IMG/VR virus record: IMGVR_UViG_3300011113_000755
Coordinates: 1-27,903 of that record
DNA: 27,903 bases
Reading direction: 5' to 3' (one strand)
Source of the DNA: an uncultured virus (IMG/VR IMGVR_UViG_3300011113_000755)
The position numbers and the translations under genes are program-made. The notes under the pieces are model-generated. The model was not told where the DNA came from, did not search any database, and saw nothing but the letters and a program-made list of their open reading frames with translations. Below, piece after piece: positions 1-22,762 of this stretch. The first letter of the stretch is position 1. Each line of letters opens with the position of its first letter.

Positions 1-17
1 TAGTCCCCTTCACTTCT

Positions 18-119
18 ATGACTGACAAAACCGCTTGGGAGGAATACTGCGAAGCCAGCCTTGACCTGAGCGATCAGGACGATGTTGGCGAACCCGTGGA
101 AGAACCTCCCACTGATTAG
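18..119 (+). CDS. Small acidic hypothetical protein (33 aa, MTDKTAWEEYCEASLD...)
   Basis: ATG at 18 and TAG at 117-119, translated by hand. Flanked on both sides by TAGTCCnCnTC. Confidence 0.5.
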   Translation: MTDKTAWEEYCEASLDLSDQDDVGEPVEEPPTD

Positions 120-136
120 TCCACGTCGTTAGTGGG
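108..136. other. Candidate recombinase target (att-like) site, 11-7-11 imperfect palindrome
   Basis: CCCACTGATTA-GTCCACG-TCGTTAGTGGG. The arms are 8/11 complementary and the site lies immediately upstream of the recombinase promoter. Confidence 0.4.
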
Positions 137-141
137 TTTAG

Positions 142-175
142 TTGACAAGAGGCGGGCGGCATAGTAGTGTGCCGC
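142..175 (+). promoter_or_regulatory. Sigma70-type promoter of the recombinase with an overlapping palindrome
   Basis: TTGACA (142-147), 17 bp, TAGTGT (165-170). An inverted repeat GCGGCAT/GTGCCGC (156-175) spans the -10. Confidence 0.55.
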
Positions 176-192
176 TCTCCTCAACCCATGTC

Positions 193-1047
193 ATGCCATC
201 CACTCTTGCTGAACTTTGGAGCGCCTTCGTTGAAGAGCGCTCCATTTCTTTGTGTCCCACAAGTCTTACTTCGGACTATAGGCAGGTGACCAAATGGCTA
301 GGGCGTTGTCCGATTCAAGATATTGATGAAGCACGAAAAATCATGATTTGGATTCTTGGCGAAAAACCTATACTTACATCTAGGCGTGTTGCAATGTATA
401 CAAAAACCATGTACAAATGGGCGGCACAAGAAGATGTTGCTTACATTACCAAGAACCCTTTGGCAAGTTTCAAAATGCCAAAAGCGCCGCAACGAGACGA
501 AGAAGTAATCGTAATTCCCCGCAACGAAGTTGGATTGGTACTGGCCGCTTTAGAGGCGAAGTTGACTTACAGGAATGTCAATTGGGCTTGGTATACAGAA
601 TTTATGCTTCAAACTGCAATGCGAACAGGAGAAGTGCGTGCTCTGCTGTGGGATGATATTAAAGAAAACAAAATTCTTGTTCATCAAAATTACACGTTGA
701 CGCATGGCTTGAAAAATAGTACTAAAACCAACAAACGGCGTTGGGTGCCATTGAATAAAAAATGTCAAGAAATTTTACAATTATTACCACAAGCTGATCG
801 TTTTATTTTTCCTTGGGATCGACTGGCATTCCAAAGTTACTTTCGTAAGAAACTTCAGCCACTTTATCGCGCCGAATTAATCACTCATTTATATCGGCCA
901 TACGATTGCCGCCACACTGCAATTAGCCGATGGATTGAAGCCGGCATTCCCGTGCCTCAAGTGGCAAATTGGGCCGGAAACACAAGTGAAATTATTTTCA
1001 AACATTATTGCAACAGCACGAAAGAATATGAAATGCCTGAGCTGTAG
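193..1047 (+). CDS. Tyrosine recombinase / phage integrase family protein
   Basis: Catalytic motifs MRTGE (R), TKT (K), PYDCRHT (HxxR variant), WAGN and KHY (Y), plus an N-terminal core-binding region. ATG 193 is preferred because the TTG at 142 is the -35 box. Confidence 0.9.
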   Translation: MPSTLAELWSAFVEERSISLCPTSLTSDYRQVTKWLGRCPIQDIDEARKIMIWILGEKPILTSRRVAMYTKTMYKWAAQEDVAYITKNPLASFKMPKAPQRDEEVIVIPRNEVGLVLAALEAKLTYRNVNWAWYTEFMLQTAMRTGEVRALLWDDIKENKILVHQNYTLTHGLKNSTKTNKRRWVPLNKKCQEILQLLPQADRFIFPWDRLAFQSYFRKKLQPLYRAELITHLYRPYDCRHTAISRWIEAGIPVPQVANWAGNTSEIIFKHYCNSTKEYEMPEL

Positions 1048-1113
1048 GCGGTTTACCGAAGATTCGCTTTTTTGAAACATGGATTAAACTAACTGAGAAC
1101 GTTTTGTTTGACC

Positions 1114-1437
1114 ATGGCCTCTCAAGCTACTGAATTTTCTTGGAATATTGCCAACATGGAGCGCACGCTTTCTGATGGCATTGTTTATACCATTCACTAC
1201 ACCATTGATGCCTTTGATGGCACGTATCGTTCCGGCGCCTATGGTTCTATTGGCCTGGAAGCGCCTGAGGAAGATGCTGCCATTCCCTATGGCGATCTAA
1301 CCAGCGAAATCGTAGTGGGCTGGCTACTCGACAAACTGGGCGAAGATAAAGTGGCGGAAGTGGAGGCCGCTCTGCAAGCCCAAATTGACGAGCAAAAAGC
1401 CCCCACGAAAGGCGCCGGCGTGCCTTGGGCTAGCTAA
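1114..1437 (+). CDS. Conserved tail-associated phage protein
   Basis: WNIANMER...DGIVYTIHY...GAYGSIGL...IPYGDLT...GVPW is a widespread small family found next to tail-fibre genes. Confidence 0.7.
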   Translation: MASQATEFSWNIANMERTLSDGIVYTIHYTIDAFDGTYRSGAYGSIGLEAPEEDAAIPYGDLTSEIVVGWLLDKLGEDKVAEVEAALQAQIDEQKAPTKGAGVPWAS

Positions 1438-1673: not shown

Positions 1674-2015
1674 ATGTATTATCCCGCCACTTACAACATA
1701 GTGGTGCTGCAGAATTCCACTTATCGGATGCAAATCACTGCAACGCAAAGCGGCGGCACTCCCATTAATCTTACGGGATATACGATTGATAGTGATATTT
1801 GTGGGGCAATTGATGGACAAATTGTGGCAAGTTTTGTCCCGGCAATTACCAATGCGGCCAGTGGTGTTTTCCAGCTCACGCTGCCACCTACTGTTTCTAG
1901 CGGATTAGAAGTGGGACTTTATAACTATGACGTAAGTGCAACGCAAGCTGGAGGAGATCGTTACTATTGGTTAAAGGGCACTTGCACGGTGTCAGGCACT
2001 TGCTCTAGGAACTAA
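1674..2015 (+). CDS. Tail/fibre adaptor-like structural protein (paralog of 3949-4287)
   Basis: PATYNI...PINLTGYT...GVFQLTL...YNYDV...YYWLKG beta-rich motif pattern, in the tail module. Confidence 0.7.
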   Translation: MYYPATYNIVVLQNSTYRMQITATQSGGTPINLTGYTIDSDICGAIDGQIVASFVPAITNAASGVFQLTLPPTVSSGLEVGLYNYDVSATQAGGDRYYWLKGTCTVSGTCSRN

Positions 2016-2017
2016 TC

Positions 2018-2698
2018 ATGCCGGATATTATTCTCACTGTTGTTAGTGGAGAGCCCGTAGATATTGGGCTTTCCATTCCTGGCGTGCAAGGTCCAATGGG
2101 GCAGAGTACTCTGCCCTCTGGGGGTACGGTTGGTCAAATTATTACCAAGGCTAGTTCTACAAATTATGACGCATCGTGGACTTCCACGGCTTCTGGGCTA
2201 ACGCTTCGTAATTCCACCATTTCTGGCACCACTGTTTTAGGCAATATTTCTGGCGGCACTTATTTGGCTCCAACCATTACTGGCGCCACTGTTAATGGAC
2301 CAACAATTAATGGGGGATCGGCTAATGGCACAGCCCTTTCCAATGCCATTGTAGATGGCTGCACCATTGACAATTCGACGTTTGAAGACGGCACTATTTT
2401 TAATATTACGCTTTCCGGGACAGTCACTAATACTGCCACTGTTACAAGTGGTATTTACAACAATGCAAGGCTTTCTTCTCCAATTGTTATTTCTCCAACT
2501 ATCTCCGGAAATATCACCGCATCTGGAGGAGTCACTGTTTTTGCAAGTGGGGCGTCGATAGGCTTTTTTGGCGCTTCTCCAGTGGTTTGCCCTTCTGGCA
2601 TTTCCATTCCAAGCGGAGGCTCTTCTACTGCAGAAGTGCTTACTTCTTTAAGCGGCGTTATCGTCGCGCTTCGTAATCTTGGCCTTATTCGTGGATAA
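2018..2698 (+). CDS. Tail fibre-like protein, Gly/Ser/Thr-rich
   Basis: Short collagen-like PGVQGP followed by PSGGTVGQIITKASSTNYDASW, and repetitive (P/S)TI(S/T)G beta-helix-like units. Confidence 0.7.
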   Translation: MPDIILTVVSGEPVDIGLSIPGVQGPMGQSTLPSGGTVGQIITKASSTNYDASWTSTASGLTLRNSTISGTTVLGNISGGTYLAPTITGATVNGPTINGGSANGTALSNAIVDGCTIDNSTFEDGTIFNITLSGTVTNTATVTSGIYNNARLSSPIVISPTISGNITASGGVTVFASGASIGFFGASPVVCPSGISIPSGGSSTAEVLTSLSGVIVALRNLGLIRG

Positions 2699-2700
2699 TT

Positions 2701-3924
2701 ATGGGACAAATCATTGCTGGCAACGAACAATTTGAAACTCATATTGAGGCAGATTATCGCGGGCAAATTTTAAAAACTGGTCCAGACAGTGGTGCTGTAG
2801 ATGCATTTGGGCGCACTCGGACAAGTGCTCCATTTACGCTTTTTGATAGTACCATGCGCTACGACAAGCGTAGTGATCAATGGTTTGATAGCACAACTGG
2901 TGGGGGAGTTGTTTCTTATTTGGCCAATCAAAGCAGTGTTGCCTTGACTACTACCACTGCTTCTGGCGATACTGTTCTGCGTAGAACTAGGCAAAATTTC
3001 CCCTATCAACCAGGGAAAAGCATGATGGTGCTGCAAAGTTTTGTGGGCACTGCGCCAACTGCTGATCTCATCCAAGAAGTGGGGCTTTTTAATGATAACA
3101 ATGGCATCATGGTGCGTGCCAGTGGCACCACTTTGCAATTTGTCATTCGCAGTAAAGCTTCGGGCAGTATTGTAGAAAGCGTAGTTAACCAATCATCGTG
3201 GAATATTAATACGCTTGATGATTTAAATTTTGCTAAAGCTCAAATTTTAGCTATTGATTTGGAATGGCTTGGCGCCGGAAGGGTGAGAGCTGGTTTCGTT
3301 GTTGATGGAGAAATTATTTATTGCCATGAGTTTGATCATTACAACGTTTTAGACAGCGTTTATATGACCACGGCTATTCTGCCGTTGTCCTATCGCATTC
3401 ATAATGCTTCCACCCAAGCATCGGGACGCACGTTAAAACATATTTGTTGCAGCATTTTAAGCGAAGGCGGTTATGAGCCCGATGGTGCCATTTATTCAGT
3501 AAATCATGATCTAGCAAGCGTGCCCAACACATCTGGCGAGCGCCTTACTGCTGGTATTCGCATGGCAAGTGGTCGTACTGGCAATGTAATTTTGCCAGTG
3601 AGAATTTCCACTACAACTAACTCTTCTGATTTAGTGCTGTGGAGATTACGTCTCAATCCAACATTAAGTGGAGTGACGTGGAGCGCTGCTCAAAATGGAC
3701 GCGGTAATGTAGAGGTGACTACTAGCGGCGCGTTTTCTGGCGGCACCATCATTGACTCCGGGTTTGTTTCGCAAGGCAGTGCTAACAATTATGCAGTAGC
3801 AGAGGCTGTTAGGCTTGCTTTAGGACAAAACGCTGCTGGCGAAAGCGACACTCTTGTATTAACTGTAGACAGCCCTACCAATGCAAAAGCATTAGGAATG
3901 ATCGGCTGGGTGGAAATTGCTTGA
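2701..3924 (+). CDS. Virion structural protein (lectin/beta-sandwich-like, DAFGR motif family)
   Basis: DAFGRTRTS...YQPGKS...DLEWLGAGRVR motifs typical of a cyanophage structural family, in the tail operon. Confidence 0.65.
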   Translation: MGQIIAGNEQFETHIEADYRGQILKTGPDSGAVDAFGRTRTSAPFTLFDSTMRYDKRSDQWFDSTTGGGVVSYLANQSSVALTTTTASGDTVLRRTRQNFPYQPGKSMMVLQSFVGTAPTADLIQEVGLFNDNNGIMVRASGTTLQFVIRSKASGSIVESVVNQSSWNINTLDDLNFAKAQILAIDLEWLGAGRVRAGFVVDGEIIYCHEFDHYNVLDSVYMTTAILPLSYRIHNASTQASGRTLKHICCSILSEGGYEPDGAIYSVNHDLASVPNTSGERLTAGIRMASGRTGNVILPVRISTTTNSSDLVLWRLRLNPTLSGVTWSAAQNGRGNVEVTTSGAFSGGTIIDSGFVSQGSANNYAVAEAVRLALGQNAAGESDTLVLTVDSPTNAKALGMIGWVEIA

Positions 3925-3948: not shown

Positions 3949-4287
3949 ATGATTACGCCAGGTAAGCACGACATCACTATTTACCAAGGCGCCACATTTG
4001 AGCTGCAGGTGCAATATAAAGACAGTACTGGTGTACCAGTAAACATGAGCGGATATACTATTGCCAGTAAACTTTACAATCGTTTAGGCACTGCAAAACT
4101 TCGTGATTTTACTGCTTCGTATGTAAATCAAGCTAGTGGCATTTTTAAAATTCGCTTAGAAGCTTCTGGTACAAGCGGGCTAACTGAGCAGGGGCAATAT
4201 GATATTTTGGTGACTGAGCCGAGCAATGATGTGTATTATTTAGTTGAAGGTAATGCATATGTTAATCGAGGACTTAGCTTCCAATGA
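3949..4287 (+). CDS. Tail/fibre adaptor-like structural protein (paralog of 1674-2015)
   Basis: PGKHDITIYQGATF...PVNMSGYT...GIFKIRL...QYDILV...YYLVEG. Confidence 0.7.
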   Translation: MITPGKHDITIYQGATFELQVQYKDSTGVPVNMSGYTIASKLYNRLGTAKLRDFTASYVNQASGIFKIRLEASGTSGLTEQGQYDILVTEPSNDVYYLVEGNAYVNRGLSFQ

Positions 4288-4694
4288 CAGTAATTGTTCA
4301 AGAATCTACTACCATTCTTGATCTTACCCAACAAGCTTCTCCTTCCATTGTTATTAATGAAGAGGAGAATAGTATTGTTGTTTCCGCAAGCTCTAGTCCT
4401 TCAGTTATTGTTGAACAAGCCACGGAAGTGGTGCTTGAATATTTTGGCAATGGCCCCCAAGGTGTACCAGGGCCCGGCATCATCCCTAGTGGCACTACTG
4501 GGCAAGTATTAGCCAAGACAAGCAATACTAATTATGACACGCAATGGAAAACGCTAAGTTTAAGCGACTTGTCTGATATTAATATTGCAAGCAAAGTGAA
4601 TGGTAGCGTTCTTGTTTATGATGGAGGAAGCCAAAGGTTTGTGGCTAATTCTTCTTTCACTTCCAACACATTGACGGACGGGGGTAATTTCTAG
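4284..4694 (+). CDS. Short tail fibre-associated protein
   Basis: GPQGVPGPG followed by PSGTTGQVLAKTSNTNYDTQW and LSDLSDI...GSVLVYD, ending DGGNF. ATGA overlap with the upstream gene. Confidence 0.7.
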   Translation: MTVIVQESTTILDLTQQASPSIVINEEENSIVVSASSSPSVIVEQATEVVLEYFGNGPQGVPGPGIIPSGTTGQVLAKTSNTNYDTQWKTLSLSDLSDINIASKVNGSVLVYDGGSQRFVANSSFTSNTLTDGGNF

Positions 4695-5668
4695 TGAGTA
4701 ATGTCATTCGCATTAAGCGTCGGGCTGCTGGTGGCAGTGCAGGTGCTCCGTCAAGCCTGGCTAATGCCGAGCTGGCTTATAACGAAAGCGATGCCGGAAA
4801 TGGCATTCTTTATTACGGCTATGGCACTGGAGGAGCTGGCGGCACTGCCACGCAAGTAGTGGCCATTGGCGGAGACGGTGCGTTTGTCAATTTAACTGGC
4901 AATCAAACAATTAGTGGTAATAAAACATTTACGGGCACGGTTAGCCTTACGACTGTTAGCGGCTTGACTACTACTGGGGATGTTGTTGTTGGTGGAAATC
5001 TTACCGTTAATGGCACCACTACCACTGTTAATAGCACCACTGTTACTGTTGACGATAAGAATATTGAACTTGGCAGCATCACAAGTCCCAGTGATGCCAC
5101 GGCTGATGGTGGCGGCATCACGCTAAAAGGCACCACTGATAAAACATTTAACTGGGTGGATGCGTCTGATTCATGGACGAGCAGCGAACACCTTGATTTA
5201 GCAAGCGGCAAATCTTATCGCATTAATAATACAGTTGTACTATCTAGCACTGCCCTGGGGGCCGGTGTCGTCTCTTCCAGCCTTACTTCTGTTGGCACGA
5301 TTAGCGGAGGTACTTGGCAGGGTACGGCTATTGGCACTGCTTATGGCGGCACTGGCGCCGCCACTGCGTCTGGCGCTCGTACCAATCTTGGTCTCGCCAT
5401 TGGCACAGATGTGCAAGCTTATAGCGATGTGTTGGCAGATTTTGCGGGGCTTACGCAAGCTGCTAATAAACTTCCATATTTTAATAGTTCTACGACTGCC
5501 ACTACCACTGATTTATCTTCTTTTGGACGTTCTTTGATTGATGATGCAGATGCATCGACGGCTCGTACCACATTGGCGTTGGGAACAATGGCTGTTCAGG
5601 ATGCCAGTAATGTGGCGATTACTGGCGGCACAATTAGTGGCGTGACTATCGACGGCGGATCATATTGA
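4694..5668 (+). CDS. Tail fibre protein
   Basis: N-terminal IRIKR...APSSLANAELAYNE; NLTVNGTTTTVNSTTVTVDDKNIELG...ADGGGITLKG; GGTGA...ARTNLGL; C-terminal IDGGSY. Confidence 0.8.
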   Translation: MSNVIRIKRRAAGGSAGAPSSLANAELAYNESDAGNGILYYGYGTGGAGGTATQVVAIGGDGAFVNLTGNQTISGNKTFTGTVSLTTVSGLTTTGDVVVGGNLTVNGTTTTVNSTTVTVDDKNIELGSITSPSDATADGGGITLKGTTDKTFNWVDASDSWTSSEHLDLASGKSYRINNTVVLSSTALGAGVVSSSLTSVGTISGGTWQGTAIGTAYGGTGAATASGARTNLGLAIGTDVQAYSDVLADFAGLTQAANKLPYFNSSTTATTTDLSSFGRSLIDDADASTARTTLALGTMAVQDASNVAITGGTISGVTIDGGSY

Positions 5669-7384: not shown

Positions 7385-7594
7385 CTAGCGACGAATTTCA
7401 AGAGAACGCACACGCGATTCCAAAGCCGTAATGCTTTCGGTGAGCGTGTCAAGTTTTTCAGTGATGCTTTCAATTTGTGTGGCAACTTTTACTTGTTGAT
7501 TACCAACTGTAATCAGCATTGCTCCAGTCGAGAGCAACATGCCAGCGGTCATTGTGACCACAAAATTTGCCAAACCTTCTTGAAAGCTCTTCAT
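7385..7594 (-). CDS. Membrane-anchored coiled-coil protein (lysis-associated?)
   Basis: One hydrophobic segment followed by a heptad coiled-coil tail. Confidence 0.6.
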   Translation of the reverse strand: MKSFQEGLANFVVTMTAGMLLSTGAMLITVGNQQVKVATQIESITEKLDTLTESITALESRVRSLEIRR

Positions 7595-7680
7595 TGGAGG
7601 GCGCTCATTTCCTAATTATAAACACTCTCCGAAGTTTATTTTTTGGCGATAGATTAGGAGCAAGAAAATTAAATAATGCC

Positions 7681-8160
7681 ATGCTTAGAGCGAATGGTCC
7701 CGATGAGCTTTTGCATTCCCTCATTGAACTTCGCCCTGGAGATGCCCGCCGACGTTTTAGAAAAAGTATTTTTGAAGACTATCCGTTAAAGGGGCCATTG
7801 GGTCATTGTGCTTGTGCTTATTGCGGCAAATGGAACGAGAAACTGACCATTGACCATATTGTTCCCAAGAGCAAAGGCGGTCCACATTTTGCAAAATATA
7901 ATTTAGTGCCATCATGCAAGAGTTGTAATTTAGACAAGGGAGCAGAAAAGATTTTTGAATGGTGGCGTCCACAGGAATTTTGGACTGCCAAGCGAGAGGA
8001 GCTGTTGACTATGTGGGTGTACCAAAATAGCTTTGTGAGTGCTCACACTTCGCTTCAGGATGTGGAGGCATATGCTGAGCAGCGCGGACTTTATATTCCT
8101 TCGCAAGAAAAAGCCCCCATTATTGGGGGCTTTGTTTTAGCGGAAAGTTTTGCTGCTTAA
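7681..8160 (+). CDS. HNH endonuclease
   Basis: CAYCG...LTIDHIVPKSKGG...NLVPSCKSCNLDKG. ATG 7681 is preferred as start. Confidence 0.9.
   Translation: MLRANGPDELLHSLIELRPGDARRRFRKSIFEDYPLKGPLGHCACAYCGKWNEKLTIDHIVPKSKGGPHFAKYNLVPSCKSCNLDKGAEKIFEWWRPQEFWTAKREELLTMWVYQNSFVSAHTSLQDVEAYAEQRGLYIPSQEKAPIIGGFVLAESFAA
8110..8133. terminator. Bidirectional terminator between convergent units
   Basis: AAAGCCCCCA-TTAT-TGGGGGCTTT with A and T flanks, inside the HNH 3' end. Confidence 0.65.
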
Positions 8161-11369: not shown

Positions 11370-12137
11370 TCATGCCGCCCTATCCATAGAAATTGTTAAG
11401 GGACGCCTGCCAGGGTAGTGGTTGAAGAAAAACTGCTGCGTTTTTTGCATCATCAGACCACTCTGTACCACTAACTCAGCCGCATCCAAGCTGACAATTT
11501 GAGCTTCCTGACCTTTGCCAGTATCGGGATCATGAATGGCAATGGCGCAATGGGCCTCTTCAATTTCAATGTCATACATCTGCTCAATCGCCTGTACATA
11601 AGCGCCGAGCTGCATGCGATAGTCGGCCAGTTGCGTATCAGGCTTCAGCTTGAAGCTTGTTTTCCAATCTAAAAGTGCCGTATTGCCATTGGCCATGGTT
11701 GCCAGCATGTCAAACGTGCCGGAATAGCCAATCTCCTGAGCGGGATCGTACCAAGCAATGGCGCTTTCCACGAGCAATGGGCTATCCACACGCTCCAAGA
11801 AGCCACCAATGGAATCAAAATAAGGAACAAACGATGGATGGGAATCAAGATGAGTTTCGATGTCCTCCCCATTCCAGAAGTCTTCCAGAAGGCCGTGCAG
11901 CCAATTGCCTCGTTCTACGGCATTGCGAGTGCGACGATTGGCTTCTTCATCGCCCACTTTCTTCCGCCAGTTCATGAGCGCTGCAATCTTGCCAGGCGGC
12001 GAACACGCGCTCGCAATAGTCGTCACAGAGGGCAAAACACACCCTGCGGGGACATTGGGAAAATCGTCGCAAACGTAATAACGTTTTTTGTTGATCTGCA
12101 GCCGGTTGGGTTCGTAACGCAGAAACTGACGGGGCAT
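11370..12137 (-). CDS. PD-(D/E)XK exonuclease (Cas4/MGME1-like phage exonuclease)
   Basis: LPSVTTI, WRKKVG..EA, RGNWLH, GYSGTFD, LLDWKTS, QLGAY. Confidence 0.88.
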   Translation of the reverse strand: MPRQFLRYEPNRLQINKKRYYVCDDFPNVPAGCVLPSVTTIASACSPPGKIAALMNWRKKVGDEEANRRTRNAVERGNWLHGLLEDFWNGEDIETHLDSHPSFVPYFDSIGGFLERVDSPLLVESAIAWYDPAQEIGYSGTFDMLATMANGNTALLDWKTSFKLKPDTQLADYRMQLGAYVQAIEQMYDIEIEEAHCAIAIHDPDTGKGQEAQIVSLDAAELVVQSGLMMQKTQQFFFNHYPGRRPLTISMDRAA

Positions 12138-12172
12138 GTGAAGACGTTGAAGACATAGATCGTAACAACCCA

Positions 12173-12415
12173 TCAGTAGGAGGAGCCGTAAGACTTAGTG
12201 CAATAATTGCCGTTCTTATAGGTGTTTAAAGGACAGGCAGATCCATTATCAGCAGGAATAGACCATTTAGTTCGATTGCTAGTGCTGGGCTGGCAATAGC
12301 TTCCTGCGTTGTAATAGCCGAGGGGGCAACTACCAATGCGAGGAATGGGAAAAGTTTGAGCCAATGCAGGAAATGGCGCCAAAACAATGTAGGAAAAGAG
12401 GAGAATGGTTTTCAT
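12173..12415 (-). CDS. Secreted Cys-rich small protein
   Basis: Signal peptide (ALA) followed by two repeats, CPLGYYNAGSYC and CPLNTYKNGNYC. Confidence 0.7.
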   Translation of the reverse strand: MKTILLFSYIVLAPFPALAQTFPIPRIGSCPLGYYNAGSYCQPSTSNRTKWSIPADNGSACPLNTYKNGNYCTKSYGSSY

Positions 12416-13107: not shown

Positions 13108-14052
13108 CTATTGCTTTTTTGCGACGAACGCCTCAATGGTGTCCACCATCATTTCAACGTCAGTGCAAGTTGCCACTGCGTCCATTTCCACCTTCATAGC
13201 AGCTTTTGTAATGCGAATGCCTTGTTCTTTGGTCCATGCCGTAAGCATGCCAATAACAACATTCTTAAAAGAAGCCATATCCTTGACTTCCGTGGCACGA
13301 GTCATGCCAAGGGTTTCAAGCGCCATCTTGCCTGCAGCCATGCTGCGTTGCTCATCTTCATAGCCAAAAGGATTGGCTTTACAAAAAGCTAAAAGCGCGG
13401 CTTTGGCGTCGAAAACTTCTGCATCATTGCTAGTTGCTTTGCTTGCCACATCAGCAGGCGAAATTGATACTTTTGCTGGAGCTTCTTTTGGAGCATCTTG
13501 CTGGAGAGCGGGGCGGGATGCCTTCGTAGTAGCTTCTTCTTTAGGAATGTCTTCGCCCGCATACAGGCGTAAACCAAGGCCAGTAAAAGTTGCAATAGCC
13601 TTAACACTTGCACGTTGACAGTTGTCACTAATCGCACGTCCGTCTAATTGTTGAATGGCATTATGCTTCCTGTCCATTACAGGGAAAACAAGAGCAGCAG
13701 TGCGACGGATGCCGTCCGTAAGGTAAGGACGAAGATAGTAATAACCAGGGCCGCCAAAAACCACTTCACCGATGGTTTTCTCCTCAAAAGCCACATAAAG
13801 GGCAGGAAAATGCTCCTTAAGGTAGCGGAAGGCAAACGGCCAGGAAAGATAGGAAAGACCTTTGTAATCTTTTTCAATGTGGGCACCAATGTCGGGAGTG
13901 TCATAAGCAGCCTTGAAAGCTTCAGCGCTAATTTCCAACGGAGCAAAGACGCCGTTGTAGCGATCAAGCATGGCTTGTTTAGTAAAGTCTTCCATGGAAG
14001 AAAAATCAGAAGGGGCGTAAACAGTGAGGGAGGGGGAGGGGAGGGCGATCAT
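13108..14052 (-). CDS. Sak-like (DUF1071/Rad52-like) single-strand annealing protein
   Basis: GLSYLSW, PVMDRKHNAI, QRASVKAIATFTGLGLRLYAGEDIP. Confidence 0.85.
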   Translation of the reverse strand: MIALPSPSLTVYAPSDFSSMEDFTKQAMLDRYNGVFAPLEISAEAFKAAYDTPDIGAHIEKDYKGLSYLSWPFAFRYLKEHFPALYVAFEEKTIGEVVFGGPGYYYLRPYLTDGIRRTAALVFPVMDRKHNAIQQLDGRAISDNCQRASVKAIATFTGLGLRLYAGEDIPKEEATTKASRPALQQDAPKEAPAKVSISPADVASKATSNDAEVFDAKAALLAFCKANPFGYEDEQRSMAAGKMALETLGMTRATEVKDMASFKNVVIGMLTAWTKEQGIRITKAAMKVEMDAVATCTDVEMMVDTIEAFVAKKQ

Positions 14053-22141: not shown

Positions 22142-22762
22142 ATGGCGAAATTTGTAGTTTATGCATTTTGTCGTGAAGACAATACTTTTTATTACATCGG
22201 CAAAGGATCTAAAAAGCGTGCATATTCCAAGCGCCAACAGGGTGTAAAGCCTCCGCGTAACAAAACTAAGATTTTAATTTTACATTCTGATTTAGACGAG
22301 CAAACCGCTTTAAAATATGAACGCTTGTTGATTCAATTTTACGGGAGAAAAGACAATGGAACTGGCATTCTCCGTAACATGACCGATGGCGGCGAAGGTG
22401 TAACGGGATGGGTGCCAGACATTTCTTGGCGACAGCAAAAAAGTGAACGCATGAAGGGGAAAAATAATCCGTTCTATGGCAAAAATCATACCCAAGAGGC
22501 AAAAGACTTGATTTCCGCTAAAAATAAAGGGCAATTGCTTGGCGAACGCAATCCAATGTATGGGATAAGACTTATCGCGGAAAATAATCCCATGTATGGC
22601 CGTTCGCGTCCCGATTTGGCAGAGTTCAATAAACAAAATCCTTCCGCTCGTGGAACAAAATGGTATACAGACGGAAGCAGTGCAGTCAGATGCATTGAAG
22701 GAATGGCTCCAGAAGGGTTTTGGCTTGGACGACCCTCTGTTAAGAAATATGAAAATAAATAG
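22142..22762 (+). CDS. GIY-YIG homing endonuclease with NUMOD3-like repeats
   Basis: VVYAF...YYIGKG...RAY...E..LI..YGRKD.GTGILRN.TDGGEG; NPFYGKNHT, NPMYG x2. Confidence 0.85.
   Translation: MAKFVVYAFCREDNTFYYIGKGSKKRAYSKRQQGVKPPRNKTKILILHSDLDEQTALKYERLLIQFYGRKDNGTGILRNMTDGGEGVTGWVPDISWRQQKSERMKGKNNPFYGKNHTQEAKDLISAKNKGQLLGERNPMYGIRLIAENNPMYGRSRPDLAEFNKQNPSARGTKWYTDGSSAVRCIEGMAPEGFWLGRPSVKKYENK

Follow-up and report, generated by a model that had tools for sequence, protein, structure and literature searches.

Does the tyrosine recombinase at the left end of an uncultured viral genome fragment shuffle small gene cassettes at the short repeated sites in front of it, as an integron does, or do these sites mark something else? 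The fragment, hereafter the window, is the whole IMG/VR record IMGVR_UViG_3300011113_000755, a linear stretch of 27,903 bases with an estimated completeness of 39%, and its closest named phages are Synechococcus phages. From left to right it carries an open reading frame (ORF) of 33 amino acids (18-119), the tyrosine recombinase (integrase, Int), a DUF7936 gene, tail-fibre sets, an endolysin and genes of nucleotide metabolism and replication. The integrase DNA is 69% identical to int of the freshwater siphovirus S-LBS1, and a small gene of KBS-S-2A matches the mini-ORF DNA at 79% identity. An earlier note on this DNA had described an 11-nucleotide (nt) motif on either side of the mini-ORF and had suggested that the adjacent recombinase excises or shuffles cassettes there. 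We found that the motif is tied to the end of the tail-fibre gene rather than to the integrase. With moderate confidence, we read it as a conserved junction, or 'linker', between the tail-fibre and DUF7936 genes, at which phages would exchange genes by short homology with Exo/Sak-like proteins and at which the integrase would be cargo.

Both copies of the motif were present in the window as the earlier note had placed them, TAGTCCCCTTC at 1-11 and TAGTCCACGTC at 117-127, and the 33-amino-acid ORF does stop at a TAG (117-119) inside the second copy. The pattern TAGTCCNNNTC matched the window exactly twice, compared with a mean of 0.37 matches in shuffled sequences, and at least two matches were reached in 3 of 100 shuffles. 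Since the pattern was defined post hoc and the counts are thin, the window by itself leaves chance open. The caveat of the note that chance might explain the two copies was therefore sound for the window alone, but not once relatives were counted, among which the motif occurs far above chance.

To count the motif in relatives, we used Int as the seed of a protein scan, which gave 76 viral loci; 72 of these were usable, and S-LBS1 and the window were counted with them. All 11-mers within one mismatch of any of four variants were counted. In the 1.5 kilobases (kb) upstream of int, the int strand held 73 such 11-mers in 86,874 bases (0.84 per kb) and the opposite strand 1, whereas elsewhere there were 9 on the plus and 14 on the minus strand in 581,719 bases (about 0.02 per kb). 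At least one site was found in 43, and at least two in 23, of the 63 loci with at least 300 nt upstream; the corresponding numbers for the 47 loci with at least 1.5 kb upstream were 32 and 19. The sites also ended genes: 36 of the 52 distinct TAG-sites closed open frames of at least 30 codons, compared with 199 of 849 (23%) other TAGs in the same zones. In the usual layout, the distal copy forms the stop of a large ORF (440-830 amino acids), the proximal copy lies 5-260 nt before int, and between them are 50 nt to 1.4 kb of variable DNA. The cassettes were read from motif-delimited segments (clustering of ORFs without a coding filter was too noisy to give their order) and contained mini-ORFs and other small ORFs, a DUF433 gene, an HNH endonuclease, tRNA-Arg(ACG), hairpins and tandem repeats. 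The idea of cassettes bounded by the motif was borne out in this respect: they are small, variable and mostly ORF-exact, and relatives of the window carry further sites with differing content rather than no further sites and a constant gene order.

The large ORF upstream of the motif codes for a tail fibre whose C-terminal part is a Peptidase_S74 chaperone domain. In the related locus L002 (L numbers denote loci), whose Int is 91% identical, a tail-fibre ORF of 381 amino acids stops at the TAG of the counterpart of copy 1. We used this L002 tail fibre as the query of a further scan, which is unbiased regarding int and gave 80 loci. The core motif was at the fibre stop in 66 of the 80, with up to four copies per locus. 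Among the 53 fibre loci with at least 2.5 kb downstream, 47 had the core, 43 had DUF7936 and 14 had at least two sites; int was absent from 12 of these 14 arrays within the DNA at hand. DUF7936 often begins 40-140 nt past the fibre stop in integrase-less loci. We also scanned for the exact 15-mer TAGTCCTACTCNCTA, which occurred in at least 120 stretches; of its 80 listed matches we analysed the 78 that were new loci. In these listed matches DUF7936 was downstream in 57 and an L002-type fibre end upstream in 39, while 9 had neither DUF7936, such a fibre end nor int, and some of these are perhaps chance. The ORFs ending at the motif in the same 78 listed loci fell into at least six recognisable classes, with 23 unclassified. 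The frequency of int itself speaks against a recombinase acting on these sites, as the earlier note had it: int was found in 5 of the 53 fibre-anchored loci and downstream of the motif in 8 of the 78 motif-anchored loci among the matches listed.

Cultured isolates gave the same result. In S-LBS1 (MG271909.1) the motif stands right after the annotated tail-fibre gene, 86 nt before int. KBS-S-2A has no annotated integrase, and its one motif copy precedes a homologue of the mini-ORF; the T7-like podoviruses S-RIP1 and S-CBP3 carry the motif with no integrase at the locus, and in S-CBP3 TAGTCCTACTCACTTCT is followed by ATG, with the leader as in the window. All three argue against sites driven by the integrase. 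S-B28 showed no motif. The motif therefore occurs with or without the integrase, and int together with its promoter (128-1083) comes or goes as one unit just right of a copy. In the divergent locus L071, int and the fibre gene are convergent, and the motif (TAGTCACCTTC) is found on the minus strand about 880 nt after the int start, at the fibre end; its position on the opposite strand indicates that the motif travels with the fibre gene. Read-through or recoding of the fibre stop codon was tried as an explanation and rejected, since the apparent codon periodicity is lost in the many TAA-G-TCC... forms, where the motif stands one base out of the fibre frame. In these picocyanobacterial phages the hot spot has the fibre gene on its left and DUF7936 on its right.

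We then compared what lies on the two sides of the motif. The core can be written as TAG-TC(C/A)-NNN-TC, usually followed by nCTA (+11 to +14). Two locus sets gave 142 distinct 91-nt contexts, which fell into 80 left-flank and 98 right-flank classes. Conservation was at background within a few bases on either side of the motif, nCTA excepted, with 0.7-0.9 bit kept at +12 to +14 from the motif start (CTA or CTT). Left cassettes ending in ...YPSGAQ or ...QLPDAE were combined with int leaders acaaATG or ccttgagggcTTGACA in all four ways, in L019, L073, L018/L020 and L048, and the joint was at TAGTCACCTTC each time. The motif is at or in the fibre stop, copies of the same orientation bound cassettes, and different partners are joined exactly at the motif.

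Natural variants of the window itself showed the same joints. We compared assembled Logan contigs from four studies with the window, where the contigs cover it. The contigs, which come from near-identical phages, departed from the window at 116/117 (contigs X2, X7 and X8, from three studies), at 127/128 (X7) and at 133 (X8). The variant letters upstream of 116/117 were fibre ends (...KLEAQ, ...EAKVAALKTQ) or the end of another ORF. We take the assembly word of these contigs to be 31; an identity of 11 nt is far below a typical assembly word, and so the variant joints are unlikely to be assembly chimeras. A further contig, X16, joins position 127, the end of copy 2, to position 1084, the first base of the conserved leader TTAAACTAAC of DUF7936, and skips 956 bases; this joint rests on 1 contig of depth 5.9 with 42 letters on the short side, from one study of the four. 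The record of the window begins on the first base of the motif, as do the records of L056 and L081, in keeping with a branch of the assembly graph at this point. Just past the fibre stop in L088-L090, L099, L114 and L118, two different motif alleles were separated by 2-3 nt (e.g. ...CCTACTCtcTAGTCACCTTC), and such pairs look like an empty cassette slot.

The integrase was characterized next. It is a tyrosine recombinase by its PF00589 and phrog_1 matches and its conserved catalytic motifs: MRTGE, YDxRHT and HY were invariant across 55 distinct Int relatives, and we take the catalytic residues to be the R of MRTGE, the R and H of YDxRHT and the Y of HY. A scan of NCBIfam showed weak XerD and XerC matches alone (23.7 and 18.6 bits), far under the cut-offs, and no match to the integron-integrase (IntI) model; Pfam gave PF00589 only, and a PDB sequence search found nothing at E 0.001 or better. 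The gene most likely starts at ATG 193; the TTG at 142 falls within the -35 hexamer, and relatives align from residue 16-21 of the 301-amino-acid frame. The TTGACA of the likely promoter is at 142-147, where the earlier note had seen it. This promoter was not listed in a consensus scan because its -10 hexamer matches TATAAT at just 3 of 6 positions; the same scan showed no promoter or terminator at 1-30 or 100-140. A hairpin at 149-182 is retained in L002, L003, L016 and L059 despite substitutions including G-U pairs (read by eye). Such G-U-tolerant changes point to an RNA-level structure in read-through transcripts of the tail operon, or to an operator.

The architecture of a recombinase site was not observed. 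The earlier note had taken copy 2 as the centre of an 11-7-11 imperfect palindrome at 108-136, but this stretch folded no better than shuffles (z -0.57; 56 of 200 fold as well) and was not among the 25 longest of the 37 inverted repeats in 1-1200. Nor was it conserved: L015, L017 and L024 have TAGTCCACGTC abutting TTGACA and lack the right arm, and L016 retains TCCACGTCacTAGTGGGG with the left arm gone. The hairpin at 149-182 would be a better candidate than 108-136 for a protein-binding site. The sites showed no inverted repeats, no motif was found 3' of int in the listed relatives, and DUF7936 always follows int in them. The two window copies also differ in the central triplet, CCT in copy 1 and ACG in copy 2; with tyrosine recombinases, such a mismatch, if it lies within the overlap region, would block strand exchange between the two sites. 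In the integrase-less loci L107 and L120, the motif is followed after about 13 nt by the terminator hairpin that follows int in L025. The integrase looks like cargo, a mobile passenger of the hot spot, and not like its engine. The features of the window that bear on these points are collected in Table 1.

Table 1. Features of the hot spot and candidate exchange enzymes in the window
Feature	Position	Strand	Evidence	Remark
Junction motif copy 1, TAGTCCCCTTC	1..11	+	First base of the record is first base of the motif	In relatives follows or contains the tail-fibre stop codon
C/T-rich leader ACTTCT, from motif to ATG	12..17	+	Recurs in L002, L005, KBS-S-2A and S-CBP3	
Mini-ORF, 33 amino acids	18..119	+	Belongs, in truncated form, to a small conserved family, MxDxxAWxEYCEASLDLSxQ...	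Ends at the TAG of copy 2
Claimed 11-7-11 palindrome	108..136	.	8 of 11 arm positions match	Functional site not supported
Junction motif copy 2, TAGTCCACGTC	117..127	+	Natural variants depart from the window at either edge	
Integrase cassette: own promoter, hairpin, int, decayed terminator	128..1083	+	Missing from one natural variant	
Likely int promoter: TTGACA (142-147), 17 nt, TAGTGT (165-170)	142..170	+	Hexamers conserved in L002, L003, L016, L008 and L059	
Hairpin/inverted repeat, 13-nt arms, 8-nt loop holding the -10 hexamer	149..182	+	85% complementary; -27.2 kcal/mol, z -3.84, 0/200 shuffles	
Tyrosine recombinase (integrase), 284 amino acids	193..1047	+	PF00589, 47.1 bits; phrog_1 integrase, E 6.5e-38	
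Leader (TTAAACTAAC...) and DUF7936 gene (ATG 1114)	1084..1437	+	PF25590, 121.4 bits	Conserved right border of the hot spot
Exonuclease	11370..12173	-	phrog_298, E 2.4e-44	Candidate partner for short-homology recombination
Sak-like single-strand annealing protein	13108..14052	-	phrog_8492, E 1.8e-52	Candidate enzyme for short-homology exchange

A linker in an exchange hot spot would work as follows. The motif would be retained for a local job in the transcript, where it would terminate the preceding ORF and begin a G-poor, C/T-rich leader ahead of the gene that follows; the hosts of these phages use few Shine-Dalgarno sites, which would be the setting for such a leader. As it would lie in the same place in every phage of the group, it would form a patch of identity amid diverged DNA, at which co-infecting phages could swap fibre genes on the left side and cassettes on the right. 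The exonuclease of the phage and its Sak-like annealing protein would probably carry out the exchange, only ORF-exact joints would survive selection, and every gain would add a copy, so that arrays would build up. We assume that the Sak of the window belongs to the 'Rad52-like' class. Phage recombinases of the Rad52-like kind drive mosaicism on diverged substrates, according to the part of PMC3945230 drawn on here, and short conserved boundary sequences are described in the consulted part of PMC3029335 as an accepted, rarely seen route to mosaicism.

Several observations weigh against this linker reading. Eleven to fifteen identical bases are very short for homology-driven exchange, and the role of Exo and Sak is a predicted one. 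Conservation within the 11-mer is inflated because the instances were chosen by their similarity to it, and many loci are closely related, so that the counts are not counts of independent events. Some joints do not coincide with the motif. The nucleotide homology of the mini-ORF stops at about window position 91 and not at 117, and four different leaders stand before a DUF433-type gene, whose homology begins near its ATG (by eye). At the right joint (1083/1084) of the integrase cassette there is neither the motif nor any shared letter, so the integrase-less variant did not arise by deletion from one motif copy to another. Of the 47 integrase-anchored loci with at least 1.5 kb upstream, 15 had no site within one mismatch; several of these showed two-mismatch forms, and the divergent clade L063-L070 (Int about 64% identical) showed none. 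Other genes of the window lack such a leader, which bears on the predicted stop-plus-leader role.

Part of this evidence would suit a motif that is a conserved expression signal only, be it a stop context, an element of the 3' untranslated region (UTR) or leader, or a processing site, with no part in recombination. Illegitimate recombination would then strike everywhere, and selection would spare the recombinants in which both genes and the signal are intact. Joints outside the motif (near 91 in the mini-ORF, at 1083/1084 and at the DUF433 leaders) are expected under this alternative. Mosaicism at gene borders without conserved sequence is usual in phages, as stated in the part of PMC3029335 drawn on, and in S-RIP1 and S-CBP3 the motif follows the fibre stop and precedes a terminator hairpin, so that it belongs to the 3' UTR. 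However, the same 11 bases are reused exactly as the sole sequence shared among the 80 left and 98 right flank classes; together with the four-combination pattern and the breaks at both motif edges in the four studies, this exceeds what selection at gene borders alone predicts, and the 'empty' allele pairs are hard to explain in this way. We consider an expression signal alone unlikely, although worth keeping in mind. A promoter or late-gene signal acting genome-wide was rejected: the loose pattern gave 11 matches in five relatives of 72-86 kb, against 16 for a reversed control, and other gene starts in the window lack the leader. Somewhat less probable again is that the motif is a dedicated, orientation-specific recombination signal for an enzyme other than this integrase, for which a common phage nuclease or recombinase, a homing endonuclease or a Chi-like host enzyme would be candidates. 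The strict single orientation and the very short, sharply bounded conservation suit such a signal, as do the siphovirus and T7-like podovirus isolates with the motif, which share hosts and not ancestry, and the HNH cassettes directly behind the motif in L009 and L049. On the other hand, no candidate enzyme was identified, the HNH family occurs in just 5 integrase-anchored loci, and some joints lie outside the motif. If the motif were such a signal, it would make an integron-like platform across unrelated cyanophage families, siphoviruses and T7-like podoviruses, with fibre genes swapped on one side and accessory genes (tRNA, homing endonuclease, integrase) loaded on the other; we hold this platform to be similarly improbable.

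That the adjacent tyrosine recombinase itself excises, inserts or shuffles cassettes at the motif copies in an integron-like manner, as the earlier note proposed, is now highly improbable in our judgement. Arrays bounded by direct copies do lie just upstream of int in 23 of the 63 loci with at least 300 nt upstream, the motif is the sole conserved non-coding DNA near int in one group (TAGTCACCTTCacaaATG), and Int is intact and conserved. Against this, the motif and its arrays occur mostly without int, none follows int, and the integrase-less variant is no inter-copy deletion; the sites lack inverted arms, Int matches no integron integrase, and the central triplets of the window copies differ. 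Slightly less probable still, and last among the explanations, is that one copy serves a temperate phage as its attP core, with a host attB counterpart such as a tRNA 3' end. In complete relatives the specific alleles occur once and adjoin int, and in S-LBS1 the 86 nt that hold the motif (L078 4906-4991) are the only non-coding DNA beside int; an attP beside int that matches host sequence was proposed for P-SS2 (PMC2784084, in the part drawn on). Yet most motif-bearing phages have no integrase at the locus, there are up to four copies per locus, the fit to a tRNA T-arm and acceptor was poor by eye, and ARAGORN found no tRNA at the sites or in the window. No prophage was found among species-representative genomes. 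The scan of these gave 3 loci, of which two were close matches on short contigs from non-cyanobacterial metagenome-assembled genomes, probably of phage origin, and one was an unrelated match of 24% identity. The putative att sites of S-LBS1 (CAGCAGCCGCTTGG) were placed inside the portal and helicase genes, and the motif is unmentioned in the consulted part of that paper (PMC6157547). The 86-nt stretch of S-LBS1 was also seen to hold an imperfect inverted repeat (CTGGGTCTGG...CCAGGCCCAG). In L080 and L081, int is present in close copies (86% and 81% identity) on short contigs assigned to metagenome-assembled genomes of Methylacidiphilales and Hyphomonadaceae; these are probably phage contigs that were misbinned.

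Several cassettes were noted individually. The tRNA-Arg(ACG) of L045 (5939-6012; the same contig as L156) forms a cassette between TAGTCCTACTC and TAGTCACCTTC, directly before int, and was the single true tRNA that ARAGORN found in 48 relatives. In L009 (1785-2276) and L049 (1244-1735) an HNH (HNH_3) gene comes directly after the motif and a hairpin; a second TAGTCC flanks this hairpin, and the gene may have homed into the hot spot. In L003 (5235-5275), L014 (5069-5118), L145, L185 and L228, tandem repeats with a unit of about 11 nt (TACTTGCTCGG) run from within the right extension of the motif to a second copy. Several unrelated cassette families share one 5' region (L003 5300-5370, L023 690-770, L016, L061 and L007/L010), which consists of a covarying hairpin (GGAGCAG...CTGCTCC, GGGGCAG...CTGCCCC) and the identical start ATGACCCAACAAGATTAC (MTQQDY); beyond this start the coding sequences differ, and the region is a second kind of shared junction in the hot spot. 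Homologues of the mini-ORF were found at varying distances from int in L016, L021, L031 and L023 and as CPKG_00004 of KBS-S-2A, and the mini-ORF of the window (18-119) had no Pfam and no PHROG match.

Elsewhere in the window, tandem three-gene sets at 1674-3924 and 3949-5668 each encode an LtfC-like/phrog_1084 assembly protein, a small protein that matches phrog_22680 in both sets, and a large fibre-like or virion structural protein. Their arrangement suggests that a fibre module downstream of the hot spot was duplicated or acquired twice. An HNH endonuclease and a second homing-endonuclease-like gene lie at 7567-8160 and 22142-22762. No repressor-like gene was recognised among the window ORFs scanned, which were part of all its ORFs.

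Conserved boundary sequences between phage modules were proposed decades ago and have seldom been seen, and here a single motif of 11-15 nt marks more than 100 junctions. As it lies directly behind the tail-fibre gene, the locus is relevant to host range. The motif was found in freshwater and marine cyanophages of two morphotypes, including four cultured isolates, so that the questions of linker length and enzyme are directly testable. It can serve as a marker for accessory-gene hot spots in cyanophage metagenomes, and the view of the S-LBS1-like integrase is corrected to that of a mobile passenger of the hot spot. No description of the motif was found in the literature searched, with supplementary files outside the search.

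Of the two nearest known systems, one is the PeSL of T4-type phages, on which Comeau et al. (2014) reportedly also worked. In the part drawn on of Arbiol et al. (2010, PMC2839356), these 'mobile regulatory cassettes' are repeated conserved intergenic elements that flank small non-essential ORFs in a hyperplastic region, and recombination between copies accounts for insertions, deletions and replacements among close relatives, all of which resembles the present locus. As described there, a PeSL is a composite of a promoter and a stem-loop terminator and is scattered over several regions, whereas the cyanophage unit of 11-15 nt has neither, includes a stop codon, occurs at a single hot spot downstream of the tail-fibre gene and is common to siphovirus and podovirus cyanophages; in relatives the motif is often followed by hairpins, which vary. 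Mini-circles are shown for PeSLs in the same part of that source.

The likeness to integrons lies in the one-orientation arrays of mostly promoter-less, ORF-sized cassettes with a repeated site, and in the tyrosine recombinase that adjoins them in some genomes. In contrast to integrons, there is no IntI-type enzyme, the conserved unit of 11-15 nt is not an attC-like palindrome of tens of bases, and the recombinase is co-oriented and dispensable, with arrays that exist without it. The locus is not a shufflon because the sites share one orientation (73 on the int strand and 1 on the other). In the lambda-type layout, the tail genes are followed by the non-essential b region, attP and int. The variable accessory region and integrase just beyond the tail-fibre genes recall this order, but here int is co-directional with the tail genes, more tail-fibre genes follow it and no attP was identified. 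The integrase cassette (128-1083) resembles a moron, as described in the part of PMC3029335 drawn on, in having its own promoter and a decayed terminator and in being present or absent between conserved neighbours. Unlike morons, most other cassettes are promoter-less and are linked from stop to start via the motif.

The other nearest system is that of the linker sequences of modular theory, for which Susskind and Botstein and Clark et al. are said to be the references. Such linkers are short conserved border sequences that give homology for exchange between diverged phages, and they are unidentifiable at most mosaic boundaries, as stated in the part of PMC3029335 consulted. The present motif likewise joins unrelated modules by the same short sequence in many genomes, with natural variants at both edges of copy 2. 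It differs from the usual linkers in that one motif stands at more than 100 distinct junctions, across phage families.

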